In this document: piece by piece, positions 3,845 through 16,297 of the stretch | Layout: each line of letters opens with the position of its first letter | Numbering within the stretch: the first letter of the stretch is position 1 | From: Candidatus Heimdallarchaeota archaeon | Lineage (GTDB): Archaea > Asgardarchaeota > Wukongarchaeia > Wukongarchaeales > JBHIFL01 | NCBI GenBank assembly: GCA_046761065.1 | Contig: JBHIFL010000047.1 | Span: 1 to 34,995, forward strand | Direction: 5' to 3' | DNA length: 34,995 bases | Translations under genes and position numbers: made by a program | The notes under the pieces: model-generated | The model's database searches: none | Told to the model about the DNA's origin: nothing | Seen by the model: the letters and a program-made list of their open reading frames with translations, nothing else

Positions 3845-6800
3845 GTGCCAAATCAAATAACACTCAAAGTTGCAGAAGCAAGGCAAAGGGATGTAGGTAG
3901 AGGGAAAGTTAGAATCGATGATGCCTCGATGCGAGCAATTGGTGTAACAACTGGTGATGTAATCGAAATAATTGGAAAGAAGCATACTGGAGCCATTTCA
4001 TGGCCAGCCTATCCAGAAGACCAAGAAGAGGGAATAATCCGGATGGATGGTATTGTCCGGAAAAATGCAGGATTGTCCTTAGGAGAGAAAGTTATAGTAA
4101 AGAAAGCGGATGTTAAGGTTGCTAAAAATTTAACCATAGCCCCTACTCAGTATTCCATTACACTTGATTATGGTTTCGAAACATTTGTGAAACGTAAGCT
4201 GCTAGGATATCCTGTTATCAAAGGCGATACAGTATTGATCCCAATTCTCGGTAGAGCAATTCCTTTTATCGTGACATCAACAAATCCTCCTGGGTTGACA
4301 CTTATTACTGATACTACCAAATTAAAAGTGACCGAAAAACCAATAAAAGAACCTGAAACCGAAATGCAGCAAATCACCTATGAAGATGTTGGTGGCTTAG
4401 ATGAGGAGATTCGGAAGATACGAGAAATGGTTGAGTTACCCCTAAAGCATCCCGAACTTTTTAAACGACTAGGAATCGATCCTCCGAAGGGAGTTCTATT
4501 GCATGGTCCTCCGGGTTGTGGAAAAACTCTCATCGCGAAAGCCGTTGCAAATGAATCAGATGCACATTTCATCTCAATACAGGGTCCTGAAATCATGTCA
4601 AAATTTTATGGTGAGTGTGTTGCTGAAGATTCGCTTGTATTTACAAATGGAAGCGGATTAAAAGTAATTAAGGACACAATTCGAGAAAATGCGGTCCATT
4701 CCATTGCTGGGCTTAATTTTGAAACCGGGCAAATTGACCTCCTCCCTGTAAAAGAACTTTTTGATAAGGGAGTCCAAGAAACACTAAGAATTACCACTCC
4801 TCACGGAAGAATAGAGGTGACACCTTCATCTCGATTGTTAACGTTGCAGGATGGAAAACCGACTTGGATCTTTGCAGATAATCTCACCATAGGGGATCAA
4901 ATTGCAAGCCCTAAGAAATTGACAACTCAACACACGGAAATTCCACTACTCCTCTCATATTTACCAGATAAGACACTTATTGGAGGTCCCGTAGTAAAGG
5001 GGTTATTTGAAAAAGCATCAGGATACGGACAAGATCCTATTATGGCACAAAAACTTGGAATAACTCAAAGAAGATATGAGGATCTTAAGTACAGTGGAAG
5101 AAAAATTCCTGCAAAATATATAAAAAAATTATACAATTTGTTCCCGGAGAAAGAACAGAATTTCTTGCGATTAGCTCCTGAACAACAAATTCCACTTTTT
5201 ATGACAACAGATTTGATGTACATCCTCGGTCTCTTAACAGGACACGGGCATCTGCGCTATTCCCACCCTACAAGCACAGTTACACAAATAATTTTGACTA
5301 CGAAAGATAATGCCATTCGGAATCGTTATTCGGAGGCTATAAAATCAACCTTTAGTATAACTCTTAAGTCAGATTCAGGCTATGAAGAAGCAATTTACTT
5401 TAACTCGAGACCAATCGGTGATTTACTGAGTAATTTGGGAATTCCCTACTCGGAAAAATCTTCTCACGTGAAAGTTCCTTCTTACGCTCTAACGCTGCCC
5501 GATCAGATGTTAATTGCATACTTGCAGGGATTATTCGATGCGGATGGAGGAATTCAACTTACTAGTGAGTCCAAGAAGAAAGGTCGAGCTATACAAATCA
5601 TCTACCTCTCCAAGAGTAAAGAGCTGGTTGAGGGAGTTAAGCTTTGTCTTCTCCGCTTTGGTATTCTCTCCACCATGGGGTATCGGGAGCGAGATCAAAT
5701 TTGGAGCCTTTATATATCTGATTTCGGATCAATAGAAAGATTCCGTAGCCATATCTCATTCACTCATAGCTCAAAATTGAAGAGACTTAAACAAGAATAT
5801 GAAATAAGTCATATCAATCCTAACTATGATCGAATCCCAGTCGCTCAATGGATTTATGAGATCGGAAAAGAGGCAGGAATTACACATCAGGAGTTCCGAC
5901 AATATCGAATCAAGCCTCGTGTGAGAAGCCTGACACGCGAACAACTCCAAACCGCCTACGAGTTGTTACACGAAAAAGGACTAGATCAGGCCAAGTTACA
6001 CTTAATTCAGAAATTGCTTAACATGGAGATCATATGGACACCTATTCGAGATATAGAGCATGGGAAAGCACATGTATATGATTTCGAAGTCCCTAGCCAT
6101 CATAATTACATAACGAATGGGATAATTGTCCATAATAGTGAAGCAAGACTGAGAGAGATATTCAAGGAAGCTGAAGAAAACGCCCCCTCAATCGTTTTTA
6201 TCGATGAACTTGATGCAATTGCACCCAAGCGTGAAGAGGTAACTGGAGAGGTTGAACGACGCGTTGTAGCACAATTATTGACTCTCATGGACGGGTTACA
6301 AACCAGAGGACAAGTGATAGTTGTTGCTGCAACAAATCGGGTTAATGCGGTAGATCCGGCGTTAAGGCGGCCTGGAAGATTTGATAGAGAGATTGAAATC
6401 GGTGTGCCTGACATCAAAGGGCGCTTCGAAATTCTTCAAATCCATACACGTGGAATGCCATTGGCTAAGGATGTGAACCTTGAAACTCTCGCTAGGGCAA
6501 TTCATGGATATGTTGGTGCTGATACGGCTGCATTGTGCCGGGAAGCCGCAATGAAAGCCCTGCGACGGTATTTACCTGAAATTAATTTAGATGAGGAGGT
6601 CATCCCCCCCAAAGTCCTAGAAAAACTAGAGGTGCGAATGAACGACTTTGTAAACGCGATGAAGGAGATCCAACCTACTGCTATTAGAGAAGTCTACATA
6701 GAAGTGCCCCAAGCGAAATGGGAAGATGTCGGAGGGCTGGAAGAAGTCAAACAAGAACTCATTGAGGCCGTGGAGTGGCCAATCAATCGTTCTGATTTAT

Positions 6801-7552
6801 TCCATAGGATTGGAATAACACCTCCCAAAGGATTATTATTACTTGGCCCTCCGGGTTGTGGAAAAACATTATTAGCACGCGCTGTAGCGAATGAGAGTGA
6901 AGCAAACTTTATCAGCGTAAAAGGACCAGAATTGTTGAGTAAATGGGTCGGAGAAAGTGAGAAGGCTGTTCGAGAAGTATTTAGAAAAGCAAGAATGGCG
7001 GCGCCTTGCATCATATTCTTTGATGAGATTGATTCAATAGCACCAAGAAGGGGCTCAAGATTTGGAGACAGTCATGTAACTGAGAGAGTAATAAGTCAAC
7101 TATTAACAGAAATGGATGGGTTGGAAGACCTTCAAAATGTTGTCGTTTTGGCAGCCACAAATAGACCCGACATCTTGGATCCGGCATTACTACGACCCGG
7201 AAGATTCGATAGACTCATATACGTTCCTTCGCCAAAATTGCCAGGGCGAATAGAAATCATCAAAATTCACACAAAAAATATGCCCTTAGCTCCCGATGTT
7301 AGTATAAAGAACCTGGCGAGTATGACCGAAGGATTTGTTGGATCAGATTTAAACGCTCTGTGCCGAGAGGCGGGAATGATTGCCCTGAGAAAACGTGGCT
7401 TGAAAGCAAAAAACGTAAAACTGTCTGATTTTGAAGAAGCCTTGAAAAAGATACATCCCACCGCTACAAAAGAAATGCTTGAATGGTACGAACGAGTAGT
7501 CCATGAGTTTAAGAGAACTGTCCCTGTAGAATCAAAACCAACTTTTGTTTAA
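3845..7552 (+). CDS. cdc48: Cdc48/VAT/p97 AAA+ ATPase, intein-containing precursor (728 aa after splicing)
   Basis: N domain ([11 protein letters not shown]), two AAA modules with GPPGCGKT Walker A, IVFIDE/IIFFDE Walker B, and [20 protein letters not shown] second regions of homology. GTG start. Confidence 0.97.
4616..6136 (+). mobile_element. Intein (507 aa) with LAGLIDADG homing-endonuclease domain in the Cdc48 D1 pore loop
   Basis: Junctions KFYGE|CVAEDS ... [21 protein letters not shown]|SEARLRE. Removal restores KFYGESE, matching D2 KWVGESE. LAGLIDADG-like motifs [10 protein letters not shown] and [11 protein letters not shown]. Confidence 0.96.
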
Positions 7553-7557
7553 TTGAA

Positions 7558-7836
7558 TTGGAGAGAAAACGGTTGCCAAAAAATCTGTGGAGAAGTACAC
7601 CCCTCCACCTTATCGTCCTCGACCTACTAGAGTCAAGAAAGGGAGTTATGTTGGATACAGACCTTCAACGACTTCTCGTAAAGAAAAGTAATAACGTGTC
7701 AGAAAGTGAAATAAACAATACACTTATGCAACTAGAAATTAAAGGTCAAATAATTGTAACAAATATTAAGAAAAATCAAAAAAAAATTGAACGGATAAGA
7801 GAGGGGCAGGACTACCTTCCAGTAGGTGAAGATTAG
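7558..7836 (+). CDS. Small winged-helix-like conserved archaeal protein, co-oriented 5 bp after cdc48
   Basis: 92 aa, TTG start. Helix-helix-helix-wing pattern (VSESEINNTLMQLEIKGQIIV). Confidence 0.75.
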   Translation: MERKRLPKNLWRSTPLHLIVLDLLESRKGVMLDTDLQRLLVKKSNNVSESEINNTLMQLEIKGQIIVTNIKKNQKKIERIREGQDYLPVGED

Positions 7837-7906: not shown

Positions 7907-8062
7907 ATGGCGAGAAACAAATCTTTGGCCAAAAAAATAAGAATGGCAAAAAAAACAGCACAAAATAAAGGAGTTCCCGTATGGATAATCGCGAAAACCG
8001 CAGGAAATGTACGAACTCACCCCAAAAAGAGGCAATGGCGTAATACAAGAATCAAACCGTAA
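7907..8062 (+). CDS. rpl39e: 50S ribosomal protein L39e
   Basis: Not in the ORF track (51 aa). Translates as MARNKSLAKKIRMAKKTAQNKGVPVWIIAKTAGNVRTHPKKRQWRNTRIKP* and lies directly before rpl31e, as in the conserved operon. Confidence 0.96.
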   Translation: MARNKSLAKKIRMAKKTAQNKGVPVWIIAKTAGNVRTHPKKRQWRNTRIKP

Positions 8063-8110: not shown

Positions 8111-8383
8111 TTGGCAGTAGAAGAAACCGTTATCGAAGAAAGAATTTATACGATCCCTTTCTATCCCAAACTAACTTATTCAAAGCGTGTAAAAAGAGCA
8201 CCTCGTGCTATTAGAATCCTCAGGGAATTTGTTCAACGCCATATGAAGGCAACCAATATAATAATTGCACCTGAAGTAAATAAGAGAATATGGTCAAAGG
8301 GTCGAGAAAAACCTCCAAGACGCATACGAGTTAGATGCCTTAGAACAGCTGAAGACAAGATTGAAGTCCATCTTTTAGAGTGA
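8111..8383 (+). CDS. rpl31e: 50S ribosomal protein L31e
   Basis: ERIYTIP, KRAPRAIRILREFVQRHMK, VNKRIWSKGREKPPRRIRV. Confidence 0.96.
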   Translation: MAVEETVIEERIYTIPFYPKLTYSKRVKRAPRAIRILREFVQRHMKATNIIIAPEVNKRIWSKGREKPPRRIRVRCLRTAEDKIEVHLLE

Positions 8384-8770: not shown

Positions 8771-9289
8771 TCAATGAGTGAAAATCTCTGGAAAGACATT
8801 TAACTCCTCAGGAGCTAATGTTTTTCGCAAAAAGTCTCTCCAATCATCAAATCCTGGCTTCTTACCTAGCAATTCATATTCTTGTAAAGTGTGGTGTAAC
8901 ATATTCTCTGTTGGAATGTATATAAAAGCTGTAATTAAGTTTCTTTGAAACTGGACATTTATAATTTCGCGAGTGTAAAGGGTAGGAACTCCCTCAATCT
9001 GATCAAAGCGTACAAGTTGGCTTTTATTGATTTCAAATAAAATCCCAAAAAAGAAATATTTTTTTGCCTTCTGAATGATAGGATAGTTTGATATTCCGGG
9101 CCAAAGACGCCTAAATCCTTGTACTTTGACCGTTCCTAGAACTTTTATTTTCTCACCCCAAGGTTTCGGAGTTCTTTCAGCTGCTAAATCTTGAATTATA
9201 TCCCGAAGAAAGGTTCCATATCCGATCATACGTACAATTAAAGTTCTGGTTGTTTCTTTTAAGTTTGAAACCCCTACATTTACCTCCAT
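8771..9289 (-). CDS. Gamma-glutamylcyclotransferase (GGCT/AIG2-like) family protein
   Basis: GYGTFL loop, G-x-LFEI, LVRFDQIEG (catalytic-type Glu), LYTR and AFIY strands. Starts 24 bp after the ligase stop. Confidence 0.85.
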   Translation of the reverse strand: MEVNVGVSNLKETTRTLIVRMIGYGTFLRDIIQDLAAERTPKPWGEKIKVLGTVKVQGFRRLWPGISNYPIIQKAKKYFFFGILFEINKSQLVRFDQIEGVPTLYTREIINVQFQRNLITAFIYIPTENMLHHTLQEYELLGKKPGFDDWRDFLRKTLAPEELNVFPEIFTH

Positions 9290-9313
9290 GGATATCCCAT
9301 AGTTTAGATCTTT

Positions 9314-10753
9314 TTAGAAGAGTGTTCGCCCAAGAAAGTGACTTAAAATATATTCTTCTTCTGATAAAGCTCGCTCAATATTGTCTTCTGCTTGGAGAGG
9401 AAGAGATGTTCCATTTATTACTAAGGTGTTAATTATTTTTATATCCTGAAAACCCACCACCAGACCCGCTTCTTCGGTATAGGTAAGTTGAAAGTTAGCA
9501 GACAATCTTCCCATGAGTCGTGTTCCTTGCTTAACTCTGTATTGCCTTCCACTTCTCTGGTCAACAGCGGTTCTGGGACTTCCTATACGAATTAAAAGGA
9601 TATTTTTTCCACGACTCCTTAATTCTTCAAAACGTGGAGTGCTTGCTCGGATTTTTAAATCTTCTTTTTGCCAAATCTCAGGTTCTACGTTGGAAAGGTG
9701 GCTTGTTAATTCCAAATTCAAGGCTTCTCGATGGGGTTGTGTTCGCTCAAGCATTTTTAGAATGCTTTCATGTGCAGAAACTTGTTGTCCATTCTTGATA
9801 AATGTAGCATCTAGTCCCCATCGAATGGCTCGTTGTTTGTTCTCTGCATGATAAGGATCAGACCGAATCGCTTTGGTGGCTTTTAAATCCAATGCTTCCA
9901 ATGTAAGGCCACAAATTATGTAAGTAAGATCCAATAATGCTTCGATTCGTGGCTGAACATCAAAAATTCGTGTTTCAATTCGGTTCCGTATAGGAGATTC
10001 ATCTTGATCTTGATCAATATTTGTTGATGGTCCACGCGGAGTGATATCTACAAGGCGATTACCGGCAGAATTGGTTATTATGCGGCGTTTATCTGTTGAG
10101 GTACTAATCCGGAAGGAATAGCGCAATCTACCATAATACCTTGCCTGAACAAGTTGCGGCCTGTCTTCAGGAATCTCCAATCTGCCAAGGGGGTTTGTTT
10201 CTAGAACACTACTATTGGCGATTCGGTTGCTTGCAATATTGTTCCGAGTTCCTCTATATATTGGAGAATTCGCTGATAATGCGATAAGTTCAGGAAGATG
10301 ATTCCAGAGGTGATTATATACTATTAACATCTCTTCTGGGGTCATAAAGGTATTTCCCCCCCCTTTTCGCGCCGATACATTGATATGTACACCTACTAGA
10401 GGATTTGGATCGCTTTGAATCGGGTGGATACTATGTGCTAGAACTTTACCCCCTAACTCGTGAACTGCATCAATAAGGAGCCTTCGACCTTCGCTAACAC
10501 ATTCCTTCAACATTTCGAGCTCTACTGGAAGGGTGACGTATTCTATTTGGGTTCTTGAGGGTTCAGGATCAAGGGCTCGTATTTTAAGACGTAAAGAGCG
10601 TAAACGATTTGTATCTCTACTTAAAATTACTGCAGCTTGCCTCATTACGTCGTCTGCTAGTGGTGCAAGTGTACCTTCTTTAGAAAGAAGAAGAAATTCT
10701 TCTTCGATTCCACAAAGTAAAGTATATTTATTACATAGATCAGTTAAATCCAA
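9314..10753 (-). CDS. Glutamate--cysteine ligase family 2 (GCS2/YbdK-like) carboxylate-amine ligase with extra C-terminal domain
   Basis: GIEEEFLL, QIEYVT, GVHINVS, LIALSANSPIY, DITPR, RIETRIFD, ENKQRAIRWG. TTG start preceded by GGAGGAG. Confidence 0.88.
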   Translation of the reverse strand: MDLTDLCNKYTLLCGIEEEFLLLSKEGTLAPLADDVMRQAAVILSRDTNRLRSLRLKIRALDPEPSRTQIEYVTLPVELEMLKECVSEGRRLLIDAVHELGGKVLAHSIHPIQSDPNPLVGVHINVSARKGGGNTFMTPEEMLIVYNHLWNHLPELIALSANSPIYRGTRNNIASNRIANSSVLETNPLGRLEIPEDRPQLVQARYYGRLRYSFRISTSTDKRRIITNSAGNRLVDITPRGPSTNIDQDQDESPIRNRIETRIFDVQPRIEALLDLTYIICGLTLEALDLKATKAIRSDPYHAENKQRAIRWGLDATFIKNGQQVSAHESILKMLERTQPHREALNLELTSHLSNVEPEIWQKEDLKIRASTPRFEELRSRGKNILLIRIGSPRTAVDQRSGRQYRVKQGTRLMGRLSANFQLTYTEEAGLVVGFQDIKIINTLVINGTSLPLQAEDNIERALSEEEYILSHFLGRTLF

Positions 10754-10893
10754 TCTATTCTCCTCCAGATTTTATAAACGAGGAACTACCGAAAATTTTG
10801 TGTTGTCTTAGATCCCCAAAAATTTTAAGTCATATTATAAAAGAAACTAAATAGCATTCTGTATATAATCTTTCGTTTGGGTGGGATGGTTCT

Positions 10894-11814
10894 GTGTCCA
10901 ATTTCAAAAAAAAACTTGAATTCGCAAGTAAAGCAACAGATGACACAATAAAAGGGTTCATTTACCAATTAGGAAGTATTAATGTTGTTCTTACAGCTCC
11001 ACATGCTCAAGGACCATCTTCAGACCTCTTTACGGGAGAAATAGCTTATAGGGTTGGAGTAAAGACAAGAGCTCATGTCTTCATTTCAACATTGTCTCGT
11101 CAGATGTTAGATTTAAACCTCCCTTCAAAGTTGGCCCAGATATCACCATTTAGGTTGGAACTTGAAAAACTCATTCAAAAGCTTACAAAGAAACATAGTG
11201 ACATTCTAATTATTGATTTACACGGAATGGAAAAGAAAAATGGGCCAGATATTTATTTAGGAACTTTAGCAGGTAAAACAAGTAGAATTGAAGTAATAAA
11301 CCTCATAATTGAAGCATTAGAAAAAGAGGGATTCGAAACTTGGCTAGCAGAATACTTTGAACCTTCATTAATTGGAGGAGACATCATCGCGTCTATTAGT
11401 AACCTTGGAGAAAATATCGATGCTGTACAGATGGAAATAAATCAAATGCATAGGAACCTTGGGGGTAAAAAGATAATACCTGCCCTTGTAGAGGTAATTA
11501 CACAATGGAATAAGAAATATGGGCCTGTTTGGGGCACCGCCTCAATCCTGAGAAGAATAAGGGGGGTAAAATTTCCAATAAAAAGCAAAAAGAGCCTTAT
11601 TAAATATCTTGGAGGGAGAGGTATGGAGATCCATTGGGCCAAAGGAAAACGACGAAAAGTCAGAGATATTATTGATCCTATTGAAGATAAATGGTTTCCA
11701 TTATATAACTCAAAAGAACTAATACATATTATCAAAAATCAAGTTACCCAGAAAAATACAGATTTCATCAATCAAGTTTTTGGAAAAGATGAAGAATTCA
11801 AAAGACTTTACTGA
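10894..11814 (+). CDS. N-formylglutamate amidohydrolase-like (Zn peptidase fold) fused to a C-terminal MTH865/DUF2795-like helical domain
   Basis: VVLTAPH, DLN, IIDLHG, IYLGT, GGDI, AVQMEIN. C-terminus IRGVKFPIKSKKSLIKYLG...FPLYNSKELI. Confidence 0.75.
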   Translation: MSNFKKKLEFASKATDDTIKGFIYQLGSINVVLTAPHAQGPSSDLFTGEIAYRVGVKTRAHVFISTLSRQMLDLNLPSKLAQISPFRLELEKLIQKLTKKHSDILIIDLHGMEKKNGPDIYLGTLAGKTSRIEVINLIIEALEKEGFETWLAEYFEPSLIGGDIIASISNLGENIDAVQMEINQMHRNLGGKKIIPALVEVITQWNKKYGPVWGTASILRRIRGVKFPIKSKKSLIKYLGGRGMEIHWAKGKRRKVRDIIDPIEDKWFPLYNSKELIHIIKNQVTQKNTDFINQVFGKDEEFKRLY

Positions 11815-11836
11815 CTGTTAATGTATAAAGTTCAAT

Positions 11837-12568
11837 ATGGAGTCTGTAATTATAAGAGAAAAAGAAAAATTGAATCTTGAAGGAAAACCAGTGATTCAAG
11901 CTTTTACTGGCTCAGGCATGGTCGCATCGATTGCGTCCTATCACCTGATTGATGAATTGAATCTTAAGGAAAAAGGTTACATTCAAGTAAAGAGAATTCC
12001 TACGCTAACTACTGTCAAAAATGGAGTGATTCAACAACCTATTCGTCTGTATGAGTCAACTGACCTGGGATTGGTACTTTGTGATATCACCATCCCTCAA
12101 GAAGCCCTTGGAGAGGTCATTGAAAAACTTATGGGTTGGTACCAGTCCAAAAACCCTTCTATAGTTGTTATTATTGGGGGACTACCAACAAATAGGAGAG
12201 GAAGGGGAGGTCCCGCTGAATATTATTGCATATTCAATGAAGAAGCGATTCGGGAGCGGATAGAGAAGAAAAATCTTAACTTTATGCCTAAAGGTGCTGT
12301 CTACGGCTCAATTGCGCTTTCCCTCCTTGAAGCAACTAACCATGGTATACAATGTCTTGCTATCCTAGGTGAGTGCATTGCAACAGTACCTGATTATTCA
12401 GCAACTTTAACGGTTCTTAATGCGCTCAATAAAGTGTTAGACCTTAAAATGTCTACAGATAAGCTAAATAAAAGCGCATCTCAGTTAGATGAAAAGTTAA
12501 TATCGCAATTAATGGAATTAGAGGAGGAATCAAAGAGGAAAAGCGACACTGATACCCAATACATATAA
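11837..12568 (+). CDS. PAC2-family proteasome assembly chaperone (PbaA/PbaB-like)
   Basis: IQAFTGSGMVASIASYHLIDELNL (cf. GFPGxGxVGxIAxxHLI), QPIRLY, VIIGG, PD..A. Acidic tail ends in QYI. Confidence 0.85.
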   Translation: MESVIIREKEKLNLEGKPVIQAFTGSGMVASIASYHLIDELNLKEKGYIQVKRIPTLTTVKNGVIQQPIRLYESTDLGLVLCDITIPQEALGEVIEKLMGWYQSKNPSIVVIIGGLPTNRRGRGGPAEYYCIFNEEAIRERIEKKNLNFMPKGAVYGSIALSLLEATNHGIQCLAILGECIATVPDYSATLTVLNALNKVLDLKMSTDKLNKSASQLDEKLISQLMELEEESKRKSDTDTQYI

Positions 12569-13060: not shown

Positions 13061-16000
13061 ATGTTTCAACTGTTCTTGTCTCGAAAAGGAGTTGAAACCC
13101 ACTGGGGCGTGATAAAACGCTCGTTAATCCACAAACCAAAGTTGGAATCGTATGCTAACGCTCTGTTGGGCAACATCACGTCAGATTATCATCTGTCGAT
13201 GAACTGTTTTAGAACTATTAAGGCTCCGACTCAGTGGGTGCTGGCCTCGCTGGATACACTTGCCTTTGAACTAAAGCCGTCTGTTTCCCTCTATGAGCCC
13301 CAAGCCACCAACCGTCAGTACCCGGTGCAAGTAGTTGAAATATTACAAAAAGGAAAACACCTCATGGAGCTAGTGCAAGCAATCGTCCAAAAGAGCCAGC
13401 CGCCCCTCTATCCTTTGGCAGTACAGATCCTATTTCAACCCACTCGTCCGGGTTCCACTCGCCTACGGAAAAAGAAACGGCGTGGAGGGGAGACATGGAC
13501 GGAAGATTACCATTTGATCACTAAACAAGAAGTGCAAATTGCAGAACATCAGCGAGGGAAGATATATGGGTATTATAAGGTGACAGTCCGCATTCTTACG
13601 CCTAAACGCGCGAAACATCTACTGGCGGTAGTGAACAAGGAATTTTCGTTTAAACAGGTCGGCGCCCGAAAAACCATTGATCACTTCAATAACCAGACAT
13701 TTGGTAAGAAAGTTAGTATGTCTTCGCTTACACTCAACCGACTGTTAAACGTCCCTACAGGGGATATTTTCAGTCGGGAGGTATTAAAAGCACCAACAGT
13801 TTCTTATAGTCGTGGAAGGACTATCCGAACTCACCCGTATCCCGCTGAAGGGTACTTGTTGGGATATGACGAAGATCAGCAGGAGATCTACCTCACCGAT
13901 GCTGAGTTGCGCTCCCACATCCTTATCACTGGAATCACTGGTCATCGGAAAAGTAGCACTGTTCGAGCATTCATCCCTGAACTCACCCGGAATTGGCAAA
14001 ATCGGGTATTAATCATAGATACAGCTGGAGAATATACTGATCTAATCCAAGAGGGCTTTATCTTGCTCCGTCCAGGGTCTAAGGAGTTTCCGATTGGGAT
14101 CAATTTCCTTGATTGGTGTGAAACGCTCGGTCTCGACGAACAAATCATCTTGGGATGGGTGATGAAGATCCTTCGAACTTTCATTCGTGGGGAAGGAGAA
14201 CTCACCCCCAAGATGAGAGGGATGCTTCAGCAAGCCGTCCGGCGAGTGTTACGAAGGGGTGGGACGCTCCTTGAACTACTCAGTAGTTTAGAATTATTGT
14301 GGAAAGACTTGGGACAAGCTAAATCTCAACTCAAGCTGAGGCGCGATCAAGGTGAAAAGTTGAACCGGGAGGAGCATCGTCTTATAGATGAGTATGACCA
14401 CTATGGACTCACCGTTGAAGCACTCCTGAACCGTCTCATAGATCTGTATCAAAGTTCCTTGCGACAGGTGTTCTATGTTGAACAAACCACCCTCACCCCG
14501 AAGGATCTCTTGACTCATAACATTATTATCGACCTGAAGATCCTTCAGGAACAGGAGACCCCACGAGAACTCCTTCAAGTGTTCCTCGAGTTTTTTTTGC
14601 TGTTTCTCTTCCAAGGGGCAATCCGTCGCAAAAAGGGGCAGTATACCAAGCGTAACATCATTATTATTGAGGAAGCACAACTCCTCGCCCCGGAAGTTTT
14701 CAACAAACCGACAGCGATTGATGGAACCACGTCAGAAACGTTCTTGGGGGCTCTCGGAGGCTTTGGGATGTCATTGGTCTTTATTGCAGCCCAACCCCAA
14801 CTTCTGTCAAAAGTTATACTTGCAGGGTGTCATACCAAGCTGATATTTGGTACTACTCCAGGACCGGGGAGTGAACGGGTTGCTGCATTGGTGGACGCAG
14901 ATTTATGGGAATTGGCTCGTTTAGACCCAGGTGAAGCATTTTTGACCACCAAAGGTCGTGATACAATTAAAATCCGAACGCAATCAAAACCGATCATCTC
15001 TATGGAGGAACAAGCGCGACTGGAGACCTGGCTCCGGAAGAACCCTCCTCCGCTTCTTGAAAAATCGTTACGAACTTTCCAAGTGATCGCACAAGAGCCG
15101 CGAAGCAGTTATAGTGAAACGATGGATCTTATCGAACGAACAATCGACACCCCTAGGCGCCTTGAAAGTGGAAATCTGACCAAAGGAGCTGGGACACTTT
15201 CGGTTCCTTCTAAACAAAATAAGCTAGAGATTATACAGGCACAGCCACTGCAAGAGCGAGATATCATAAATGCGGGAAATCATATGAAGTGTTGGTTTTT
15301 TGACGAATGTGGGGTTTGTATGAAGAGTATTACAATCCTGAGCGACGCAACTATTTTGGCAAAACAGTATTGGAAGAAAAAAACAAAAGTTGAACTTCAC
15401 ACAAGACTTAATCACTATTCTACATATCCGCAAATTGTATACAAGGAGATTCTGGAACTTGCACAGCAAAAAAAAGTCCCTGCTCCCGAATTGACTGCTT
15501 TTTGTGCCCATCAAATAATTCTCAAGCGTTGTAAAGCTGATCCAGTAATTTCTGAGCGTTGTAAAGTGTTCTTTAGCAAAGAGCCCCGTGAAATTGCTCA
15601 TATTTTCGTAGATGATGAGATACGGGAAATTCTTAACTTAAGGCATTTTTATGATGCACCAACGACGTTCTCGCATAAAGATGAGTTTTGCCTTGTGTGC
15701 CCTTTGGATCGATCGTTGCGGAACGATTTTTGCCATAAATATCGAAAGAGTGCCCTAGACCTCTTGAAAGATCCAGTTCAAACCCGGGAATTAAAAGCCG
15801 CCTATCAATTAGGATTTGACTTCTTCCTTTCTCGCCTCTTTGAAATTTCTAAAAACCCTAGCTTTGCATTCTGTCTCGGAACGATTATTTTGAGGGGCGT
15901 CCATATTACGGTAAACCAAAAACGCATCCTTAAAGAGAAAATGGAAACGTTTCTTATCTCTTGGGAACAAACCCGCCCTTCAGGGGAAGCAAGGCTTTAC

Positions 16001-16297
16001 AAAGCTGCGGAGGAAGTCCGACAGATCATTGCAGAGGATATGTTGGAAATTGATGCGAAGAGCTTGTCCTTGAAGCAAGCTAACCAGCTTGCCAATATGA
16101 TAAATGGAGGAAAGGTTTGGGAAAATGCAAAGAAAATTTTAAATGCTGCGGTGATCTTAAACGAGCACGGGGAAATTCCTGACAGTTTTAATGTTGCTGC
16201 TCTGCCGAATATGCTAGGAGAGCTGTATCGGTGGCCTTGGTGGCTCACACCTTCTCAAAAGGAGCACTATCTCACATTTCTAAGAAATGATACATAA
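13061..16297 (+). CDS. HerA/VirB4/FtsK-superfamily (DUF87-like) ATPase homologue with degenerate catalytic motifs and Cys-rich C-terminal region
   Basis: LLGYD...HILITGITGHRKS (Walker A-like), VLIIDTAGEY, IIIIEEAQ (Walker B), GMSLVFIAAQP, LDPGEAFL. Frame is open upstream to 12935, so the start may be earlier. Confidence 0.8.
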   Translation: MFQLFLSRKGVETHWGVIKRSLIHKPKLESYANALLGNITSDYHLSMNCFRTIKAPTQWVLASLDTLAFELKPSVSLYEPQATNRQYPVQVVEILQKGKHLMELVQAIVQKSQPPLYPLAVQILFQPTRPGSTRLRKKKRRGGETWTEDYHLITKQEVQIAEHQRGKIYGYYKVTVRILTPKRAKHLLAVVNKEFSFKQVGARKTIDHFNNQTFGKKVSMSSLTLNRLLNVPTGDIFSREVLKAPTVSYSRGRTIRTHPYPAEGYLLGYDEDQQEIYLTDAELRSHILITGITGHRKSSTVRAFIPELTRNWQNRVLIIDTAGEYTDLIQEGFILLRPGSKEFPIGINFLDWCETLGLDEQIILGWVMKILRTFIRGEGELTPKMRGMLQQAVRRVLRRGGTLLELLSSLELLWKDLGQAKSQLKLRRDQGEKLNREEHRLIDEYDHYGLTVEALLNRLIDLYQSSLRQVFYVEQTTLTPKDLLTHNIIIDLKILQEQETPRELLQVFLEFFLLFLFQGAIRRKKGQYTKRNIIIIEEAQLLAPEVFNKPTAIDGTTSETFLGALGGFGMSLVFIAAQPQLLSKVILAGCHTKLIFGTTPGPGSERVAALVDADLWELARLDPGEAFLTTKGRDTIKIRTQSKPIISMEEQARLETWLRKNPPPLLEKSLRTFQVIAQEPRSSYSETMDLIERTIDTPRRLESGNLTKGAGTLSVPSKQNKLEIIQAQPLQERDIINAGNHMKCWFFDECGVCMKSITILSDATILAKQYWKKKTKVELHTRLNHYSTYPQIVYKEILELAQQKKVPAPELTAFCAHQIILKRCKADPVISERCKVFFSKEPREIAHIFVDDEIREILNLRHFYDAPTTFSHKDEFCLVCPLDRSLRNDFCHKYRKSALDLLKDPVQTRELKAAYQLGFDFFLSRLFEISKNPSFAFCLGTIILRGVHITVNQKRILKEKMETFLISWEQTRPSGEARLYKAAEEVRQIIAEDMLEIDAKSLSLKQANQLANMINGGKVWENAKKILNAAVILNEHGEIPDSFNVAALPNMLGELYRWPWWLTPSQKEHYLTFLRNDT

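Follow-up and report, generated by a model that had tools for sequence, protein, structure and literature searches.

A ligase-hydrolase gene module proposed to make and break gamma-glutamyl amides in Asgard archaea

The stretch of DNA analyzed here, referred to as the window in its full length of 34,995 nt (contig JBHIFL010000047.1), belongs to an Asgard metagenome-assembled genome (MAG) of 4.4 Mb that is 91% complete. Its subject is a set of genes centered on a divergent ATP-dependent carboxylate-amine ligase, which is followed on the minus strand by a gene for a GGACT-type cyclotransferase and faces, across a shared intergenic region, a plus-strand pair encoding an FGase-fold hydrolase and a PAC2-family protein. 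We propose that the ligase, the FGase-like hydrolase and the GGACT protein form a module for the synthesis and cleavage of a gamma-glutamyl amide, whereas PAC2 and a nearby Cdc48 gene look like bystanders. A preliminary description of this DNA had joined all of these genes into a protein-tagging system that possibly feeds the proteasome; the genes, gaps and family assignments on which it was built were reproduced throughout by our open reading frame (ORF) calls and by Pfam. The features of the locus are the following:

8771-9289, minus strand: GGACT/AIG2-like gamma-glutamyl(amine) cyclotransferase, 172 aa (Pfam GGACT)
9314-10753, minus strand: divergent YbdK/GCS2-type ATP-dependent carboxylate-amine ligase, 479 aa (Pfam GCS2)
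10754-10893, no strand: divergent intergenic region between ligase and FGase genes, 140 bp
10894-11814, plus strand: FGase/PghP-fold zinc amidohydrolase with an MTH865-like C-terminal domain, 306 aa (Pfam FGase)
11837-12568, plus strand: PAC2-family proteasome-associated protein, 243 aa (Pfam PAC2), judged to lie outside the module

Only 24 bp separate the GGACT gene from the ligase gene and 22 bp the FGase gene from PAC2. The 140-bp region between the two pairs is AT-rich, with TATA-like boxes approximately 20-25 bp upstream of both start codons, which may represent promoters. The same 140-bp spacing recurs in two relatives (loci L015 and L101). An Rfam scan of the window returned zero RNA families.

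GCS2 was the sole Pfam family matched by the ligase at E <= 0.01 (32.4 bits against a cut-off of 21), with a match spanning just 39 residues; homologues carry the corresponding precomputed assignment, PF04107. Single-sequence searches of the PDB with the ligase and the FGase-like protein yielded noise only, whereas a profile of 47 ligase homologues pointed to YbdK as the one solved relative (E ~1e-6), with the motifs LPExIALSANSP and RvEvR in common. The AlphaFold model of the ligase (pLDDT 89.8) superposes best on the YbdK-like structure 1tt4 (Z 31.6, rmsd 2.8, 310 residues), followed by plant GCL (2gwc, Z 26.6) and further plant and bacterial glutamate-cysteine ligases (Z 22-27); Dop (Z 20.9), PafA (Z 19.3) and glutamine synthetases (~18) rank lower. 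The top Foldseek match was E. coli YbdK (1r8g, E 5e-15). Among the 47 homologues, which originate from Asgard, TACK, Korarchaeota-like and methanogen-like MAGs, 36 positions are invariant, including G15, E17, E19, E64, Q69, E71, H110, H123, N162, R240, R258, E260 and R262. Because these comprise the N-terminal GxExE, ExxxxQxE, two histidines and RxExR, for which homology suggests roles in metal, ATP and substrate binding, we predict that the enzyme is very likely catalytically active.

The ligase cannot be equated with a characterized relative, as judged from the NCBIfam equivalog models (NF010039-45, TIGR02050): the best of these gave 64 bits against a cut-off of 371, the others 26-59 bits against cut-offs of 176-437, and we did not assign it as an orthologue of YbdK or GshA. 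It also possesses, behind the catalytic domain (residues ~1-360), a beta-rich C-terminal domain (~362-479) that appears specific to the family. Structural matches of this domain to SH3b-like folds were weak (Z 5-6) and under the level that can be trusted. A profile of the domain found matches in 30 of 1.84 billion cluster representatives (~30 clusters at 50% identity), i.e., ligase-sized proteins with the domain at their C-terminal end, shorter proteins that are possible fragments, and one weak repeat match. In the near-full-length matches the domain always stood at the end of a ligase-sized protein, and we take it as a signature of this small ligase family.

This family is related to YbdK/GCS2, mostly from Asgard and almost only archaeal. 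Full-length homologues with 45-50% identity exist in many Asgard lineages, and others with 30-40% identity in Njord, Baldr, Korarchaeota-like, TACK and Methanobacteriota MAGs. In the phylum sample, the gene was present in 44 of 301 genomes and 11 of 70 genera, with a patchy occurrence even within genera that is unlike that of core proteostasis machinery. Every carrier genome but one has a single copy; in the exception the gene is split in two.

To characterize the genomic context, ORFs were called in 80 species-representative ligase loci, including up to 10 kb of flanking sequence in either direction, clustered and named by Pfam. The most frequent partner, a GGACT protein of 121 aa encoded just downstream of the ligase, occurred in 46 loci, followed by a class I GATase/C26-type protein nearby (42), an adjoining FGase-like hydrolase (21) and a nearby Ntn GATase_6 protein (7). 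An ATP-grasp ligase was found in 13 loci, always together with FGase, and an activase with two or three HGD-type (2-hydroxyacyl-CoA-dehydratase-like) subunits in 25-30. At least one of FGase, GGACT, C26 GATase and Ntn GATase_6 lies no more than three genes away from 75 of the 77 full-length ligases, an adjacency far beyond chance. To our knowledge, the only known activity that the unrelated FGase/PghP, GGACT, PuuD/gamma-glutamyl hydrolase and EgtC folds share is the cleavage of glutamyl or gamma-glutamyl amides. Since nearly all ligase loci contain such a partner, ligase plus FGase and ligase plus GGACT constitute real functional pairs, and the earlier suggestion of a writer/eraser module stands to this extent, the bond most likely being a gamma-glutamyl amide.

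The partner types cluster by clade on the ligase tree (23 label changes vs 51.6 with shuffled labels). The window ligase is sister to an FGase-linked clade from Sifarchaeum and Borrarchaeum (SH-aLRT 90), and by tblastn the window GGACT is connected with its counterparts in 5 other ligase loci. Because of this sister relationship and the homology of its GGACT to those of other clades, both pairings appear to be inherited and not accidental. With midpoint rooting, the clades linked to FGase branch at the base, and those with GGACT/Ntn and C26 are derived. The window thus represents a rare hybrid, in which an apparently ancestral FGase partner is combined with GGACT.

The FGase-like protein matched Pfam FGase with 51 bits (cut-off 28.9) over the C-terminal half of the model, and Gamma_PGA_hydro (PF05908; 20.3 bits, cut-off 22) and MTH865 below threshold; close homologues carry precomputed PF07747 and PF05013 assignments. 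Its model (pLDDT 85.6) consists of a catalytic domain of ~190 residues (~19-210), matching FGase 2q7s (Z 19.8), PghP 3a9l (Z 16.1) and YndL 5onj (Z 14.6), and an MTH865-like domain (~212-300). In an alignment of 29 sequences, H37, D44, R69, N75, R87, H110 and E181 were invariant, as were D73, D108, GGD161-163 and Q179; the FGase motifs SRxxxDxNR (DxNR) and QxE are kept and align with 2q7s. These residues presumably serve metal binding and catalysis. Their order (His, Asp, Arg, Asn, Arg, His, Glu) resembles that of zinc carboxypeptidases and, judged by what is known of that superfamily, hints at a zinc site and a pocket that would accommodate a free carboxylate beside the scissile amide. The score against the HutG model TIGR02017 was 13.2 bits (cut-off 278.75), and no hut genes were present among the Pfam-scanned neighbors in the window.

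The C-terminal domain of this hydrolase varies by clade. The MTH865-like version occurs in the window's clade and nowhere else among the ligase-linked FGases. For residues 212-300 a weak Pfam MTH865 match was the sole domain signal: a profile search of the domain against PDB sequences gave no significant match, and matches to the catalytic domain took up the lists from the structure searches. The FGases of basal clades have an N-terminal helical extension. In Sifarchaeum and Borrarchaeum, five ligase-linked FGases (L052, 8963-9874, minus strand; L019, L047, L051, L061) carry a C-terminal histone fold (CBFD_NFYB_HMF, 38 bits) in place of the MTH865-like domain, an unusual fusion of an enzyme with a histone.

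The GGACT protein (PF06094, 37.2 bits against 22.8) was aligned with 16 ligase-linked GGACTs; Y24, G25 and E99 are invariant and T26 and G100 nearly so. The YGT motif and the catalytic E99-G100 are hence kept at an identity of 14-28% outside the window's clade, and the protein can be regarded as homologous to the 121-aa GGACT encoded after the ligase in most Asgard loci, though it is longer and has diverged. The same genome encodes five members of the Hydantoinase_B family and one of the PxpA family, and 5-oxoproline, the product expected from a GGACT reaction, can thus probably be reopened.

From these observations we favor, with somewhat better than even confidence, a three-gene module of ligase, FGase-like hydrolase and GGACT that makes and breaks a gamma-glutamyl amide, its acceptor most likely being a low-molecular-weight amine or amino acid. 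In such a scheme, the ligase would use ATP to activate a carboxylate, most likely the gamma-carboxyl group of free L-glutamate, as an acyl-phosphate and would join the activated glutamate to an amine. We infer a gamma-glutamyl product because cleavage of gamma-glutamyl amides is the activity shared by enzymes of the FGase/PghP, C26, Ntn-GATase and GGACT types. The FGase/PghP-fold zinc hydrolase would hydrolyze the amide, with substrates such as N-acyl-glutamate or gamma-Glu-amino acids, and GGACT would release the amine as the gamma-glutamyl group cyclizes to 5-oxoproline, which enzymes of the Hydantoinase_B and PxpA families could reopen. In the FGase-linked forms, the amine side probably has a carboxylate that is free; a gamma-glutamyl amino acid or oligo-gamma-glutamate would be examples. 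What results would be either a gamma-glutamyl peptide or compound undergoing synthesis, use and turnover, or the temporary protection of an amine by a gamma-glutamyl group. Among the contexts at other loci are the activase/dehydratase-like operons and the ATP-grasp ligases; papers of the Aravind laboratory describe COOH-NH2 ligases as often linked to ATP-grasp ligases, a pairing typical for the synthesis of peptide metabolites and glutathione-like compounds (PMC4431377). The metabolic operon contexts at other loci and the patchy distribution incline us moderately towards the small-molecule acceptor; of the two readings in the preliminary description, these contexts support its stated alternative, a small-molecule gamma-glutamyl cycle, better than its tagging route into the proteasome.

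A narrower version of the make-and-break reading would be ordinary thiol or gamma-glutamyl-dipeptide metabolism, with the ligase acting as a synthetase of gamma-glutamylcysteine (or gamma-Glu-X) of the GshA type known from haloarchaea, and its product degraded by GGACT and FGase. This would fit the GCS2 membership, the YbdK/GCL fold, the weak matches to NCBIfam glutamate-cysteine ligase models and the 5-oxoproline-recycling genes, as well as the weak resemblance of the ATP-grasp partner in basal clades to glutathione synthetase (GSH-S_ATP). However, the ligase scores 5-15 times under every glutamate-cysteine ligase equivalog cut-off, known GshA and YbdK enzymes are without the extra C-terminal domain, the ligase is patchy even within genera, and a choice of four hydrolase partner types together with the dehydratase links is atypical of thiol synthesis. 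We therefore consider this sub-case quite unlikely.

Several observations weigh against a small-molecule module. The scores far under all NCBIfam equivalog cut-offs mean that the specificity of YbdK or GshA is not transferable to the ligase, and its C-terminal domain could bind a peptide or macromolecule. The histone-fold and MTH865-like domains are odd on an FGase devoted purely to small molecules. The ATP-grasp partners of the basal clades resemble RimK/TTL-type ligases of protein tails and, in the window's clade, PAC2 is always encoded 3' of the FGase on the same strand.

Most of these points would suit a reversible modification of proteins or peptides without proteasome coupling, in which the ligase adds glutamate or another residue to a Lys side chain or a C-terminal tail. 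We regard this as unlikely, and the same holds for its detailed form, in which the FGase removes the residue, the histone-fold or MTH865-like domain provides targeting, and GGACT clears the gamma-glutamyl-lysine left after proteolysis. Besides the fused domains, the RimK/TTL-like partners and the family-specific beta domain of the ligase, it could draw on the carboxypeptidase-like residue order and the presence of the tubulin deglutamylase CCP5 among the fold matches of the FGase. That some COOH-NH2 ligases modify proteins has been proposed by the Aravind laboratory for some systems (PMC2938197). Nevertheless, the likeness to CCP5 and SH3b is at superfamily or background level, no conserved candidate for a substrate or tag gene lies beside the module, and most ligase loci are plainly metabolic operons (with HGD/activase, or with C26 or Ntn amidotransferase-like genes). 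Moreover, the known GGACT enzymes act on free gamma-glutamyl amines and not on proteins. Still more specific, and in our view improbable, would be an archaeal reversible glutamylation in which a single gamma-linked glutamate is placed on Lys or a C-terminal tail and its eraser is steered by the histone fold, implying chromatin proteins, or by the MTH865-like domain, and is coupled to PAC2 and the 20S proteasome in the window's clade. If true, archaea of the lineage nearest to eukaryotes would have an analogue of pupylation or of tubulin glutamylation.

The proteasome itself enters through the genes on both sides of the module. In addition to PAC2, these are:

3845-7552, plus strand: Cdc48/VCP AAA+ ATPase with a LAGLIDADG intein (Pfam), judged to lie outside the module
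7558-7836, plus strand: ORF directly after Cdc48, 92 aa; weak winged-helix-like signal in Pfam, C-terminal end ...PVGED
7907-8062: L39e, between Cdc48 and the GGACT gene
8111-8383: L31e (Pfam), between Cdc48 and the GGACT gene
13061-16297, plus strand: DUF87/HerA-like protein, 1078 aa, located 3' of PAC2

The end of Cdc48 is separated from the GGACT gene by 1219 bp, which contain the 92-aa ORF, L39e and L31e. Cdc48 has the full N-D1-D2 architecture; in the window it reaches 1235 aa owing to its LAGLIDADG-endonuclease intein, whereas the orthologues in L015 and L101 are intein-less, with 728 aa. The PAC2 protein (PF09754, 111.3 bits against 25.8; TIGR00161, 118 against 199 and thus under the equivalog cut-off) ends in QYI, and the penultimate Tyr of this HbYX-like tail is invariant in 6 sequences. 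In these respects it resembles an ordinary protein that docks to the proteasome.

In the preliminary description, ligase, FGase and GGACT were thought to write and erase a pupylation-like mark that hands proteins over to PAC2, Cdc48 and the 20S proteasome. The window's clade agrees with this at first sight: the block L39e-L31e, GGACT-ligase, FGase-PAC2 and, further on, DUF87 is kept in 5 other contigs in which FGase identity falls from 90% to 57%, and the four genes and a nearby Cdc48 are together in every member. The penultimate Tyr of PAC2, as in proteasome-docking HbYX tails, and the restriction of the MTH865-like FGase domain to the clade with PAC2 next door point in the same direction. 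Because the flanking genes are kept as well, the four-gene block is nonetheless accounted for by general synteny. The gap between ligase and GGACT is 23-37 bp in all clade members, and that between FGase and PAC2 extends from 22 up to 227 bp.

Outside the clade, a PAC2 HMM found the family within ~10 kb of the ligase in 4 of the 80 other loci, two from Borrarchaeum (~9 kb) and two from Methanobacteriota MAGs (~2.7 kb). The number expected by chance is 2.2 (1.75 genes per Mb in five Asgard genomes, multiplied by 1.23 Mb surveyed), giving P(>=4) = 0.17, and the Borrarchaeum PAC2 is not an orthologue of that in the window (E = 0.13). Cdc48 was found in 0 of the 80 loci. The linkage of the four genes in relatives, whose absence the preliminary description had named as a refutation, is thus real within the window's clade and at chance level for PAC2 and Cdc48 beyond it. 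In two further genomes of the same taxonomic order (G002 and G001), Cdc48 is located directly upstream of a PAC2 relative, and the ligase was not found there; in the window's lineage, ribosomal-protein genes and the ligase block separate the two. The PAC2 matches closest by identity (38-45%) belong to a genome family with 0 of 11 ligase matches. A complex prediction for the FGase-like protein and PAC2 scored 0.00, which we counted neither for nor against binding. PAC2 and Cdc48 consequently look like bystanders and not like parts of a system that feeds the proteasome. The comparative data largely refute the proteasome-coupled model, which we now hold to be highly improbable.

Some observations on these neighbors stand apart from this question. 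In G002, a PAC2-family gene immediately follows Cdc48 (C54; L125:3237-6288). In G001, Cdc48 and PAC2 share one open frame of 935 aa (C10:19585-20055; L133), maybe as a fusion, or as an assembly or frame artefact. A PAC2 paralogue of the source genome (G000:C10:31108-31752; L127:7028-7846) is placed between pairs of hydantoinase/oxoprolinase-family genes. We regard this as a coincidence, as the PAC2 loci checked in four other genomes do not show the arrangement. The DUF87/HerA-like gene holds its position in all clade relatives (1003-1031 aa), and the 92-aa ORF has a counterpart in L015 and L101, an 87-aa gene without a Pfam family. The 90%-identical relative L015 additionally encodes a ThiS-like (ubiquitin-fold) protein of 90 aa (L015:17159-17431, plus strand) beside L10e, approximately 8 kb from the ligase and at a position beyond the left end of the window.

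In the window and four relatives, no small ORF flanking the module is conserved, including those short enough for tags of <70 aa, and no recurrent cluster of small ORFs (>=70 aa) exists next to the ligase across the 80 loci, in line with the earlier remark that a Pup-like tag gene is not visible in the window. For removal by a GGACT-type enzyme, the alpha-amino group of the glutamyl residue has to be free, and it follows that a single free glutamate would fit as the donor and a Pup-like protein tag would not, as the C-terminal glutamate of the latter would have no such free group. As to the relation to PafA and Dop raised in the preliminary description, the YbdK-like structure and GCL are nearer to the ligase than Dop and PafA by the Z scores given above. 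What remains in common with pupylation is a distant glutamine synthetase-like fold, the concept of a ligase combined with an amidase, and a PAC2-family gene near the window module. In contrast to PafA and Dop, the ligase has no Pup_ligase Pfam match at E <= 0.01; the eraser is not a paralogue of the ligase, no Pup-like gene is located beside the module, and the link to the proteasome is not conserved.

Several gene neighbors deserve mention as observations in their own right. In most Lokiarchaeia-type loci (L020-L087, e.g., L053:8001-12000), ligase, GGACT and C26 genes are co-directional with a BcrAD/BadFG-type activase and 2-3 HGD-D subunits, and two VIT1 genes precede this run. In a Methanopyri MAG, the gene next after the ligase (L081:5937-6677, plus strand) encodes an Amidohydro_2 protein, a TIM-barrel metal hydrolase that is maybe a fifth hydrolase partner. 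The 416-aa protein upstream of the ligase in Methanobacteriota MAGs matched neither Pfam nor the ATP-grasp profile built here. In 10 loci with four module architectures (L047, L051, L052, L061, L065, L066, L084, L086, L088, L095), a gene for a Ras-family small GTPase lies no more than 3 kb from the ligase. Asgard genomes are rich in Ras-like GTPases and, by a rough estimate of their abundance, this proximity is probably near chance.

Compared to characterized enzymes, the ligase has the fold, the GCS2 assignment and the motifs in common with the YbdK/GCS2 ligases (E. coli YbdK 1r8g, Salmonella 1tt4, plant GCL 2gwc, haloarchaeal GshA and EgtA) and, by homology, would use the same ATP-dependent acyl-phosphate mechanism. 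It differs by an identity of ~16%, scores below the equivalog cut-offs, ~110 extra C-terminal residues, an almost entirely archaeal distribution and its pairing with hydrolases. The FGase-like protein shares the fold, the metal- and carboxylate-binding positions, DxNR and QxE with HutG (2q7s) and PghP/YndL (3a9l, 5onj); it differs in the absence of hut genes nearby, the HutG score (13 against 279), the shorter catalytic domain and the added MTH865-like or histone-fold domain. The window PAC2 is like archaeal PbaA/PbaB in PF09754 and the penultimate Tyr; both PAC2 and Cdc48 are ordinary genes related to the proteasome, with no apparent functional tie to the ligase module.

The nearest systems in logic are PuuA/PuuD in the use of putrescine, EgtA/EgtC in ergothioneine synthesis, BtrG-type deprotection and the gamma-glutamyl cycle. 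PuuA/PuuD, EgtA/EgtC and BtrG rely on the ATP-dependent addition of a gamma-glutamyl group and its later removal by a C26, Ntn or GGACT enzyme, and all three of these partner types occur with the ligase family. Unlike those pathways, the module employs another ligase subfamily and an FGase-fold partner, apparently ancestral under midpoint rooting, that is not used there; furthermore, the window has no oxidase, methyltransferase or other pathway enzyme that would act between addition and removal. In the literature searched, which did not extend to the amidoligase survey of Iyer et al. 2009, we found no paper that describes this ligase family or links these enzymes in Asgard archaea.

The module is a conserved, uncharacterized archaeal one, to which the window adds the hybrid architecture of FGase and GGACT, the fusion with an MTH865-like domain, and a direct test in which the link to the proteasome was rejected; this link should be dropped unless biochemistry revives it. 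The pairing of one ligase family with amide-cleaving enzymes of four kinds that replace one another marks a distinct branch of glutamyl chemistry in Asgard archaea. Knowing the acceptor would uncover either a new gamma-glutamyl metabolite, such as a thiol, a solute or an intermediate of a pathway, or, with lower probability, a new way of modifying proteins in the prokaryotes most closely related to eukaryotes.

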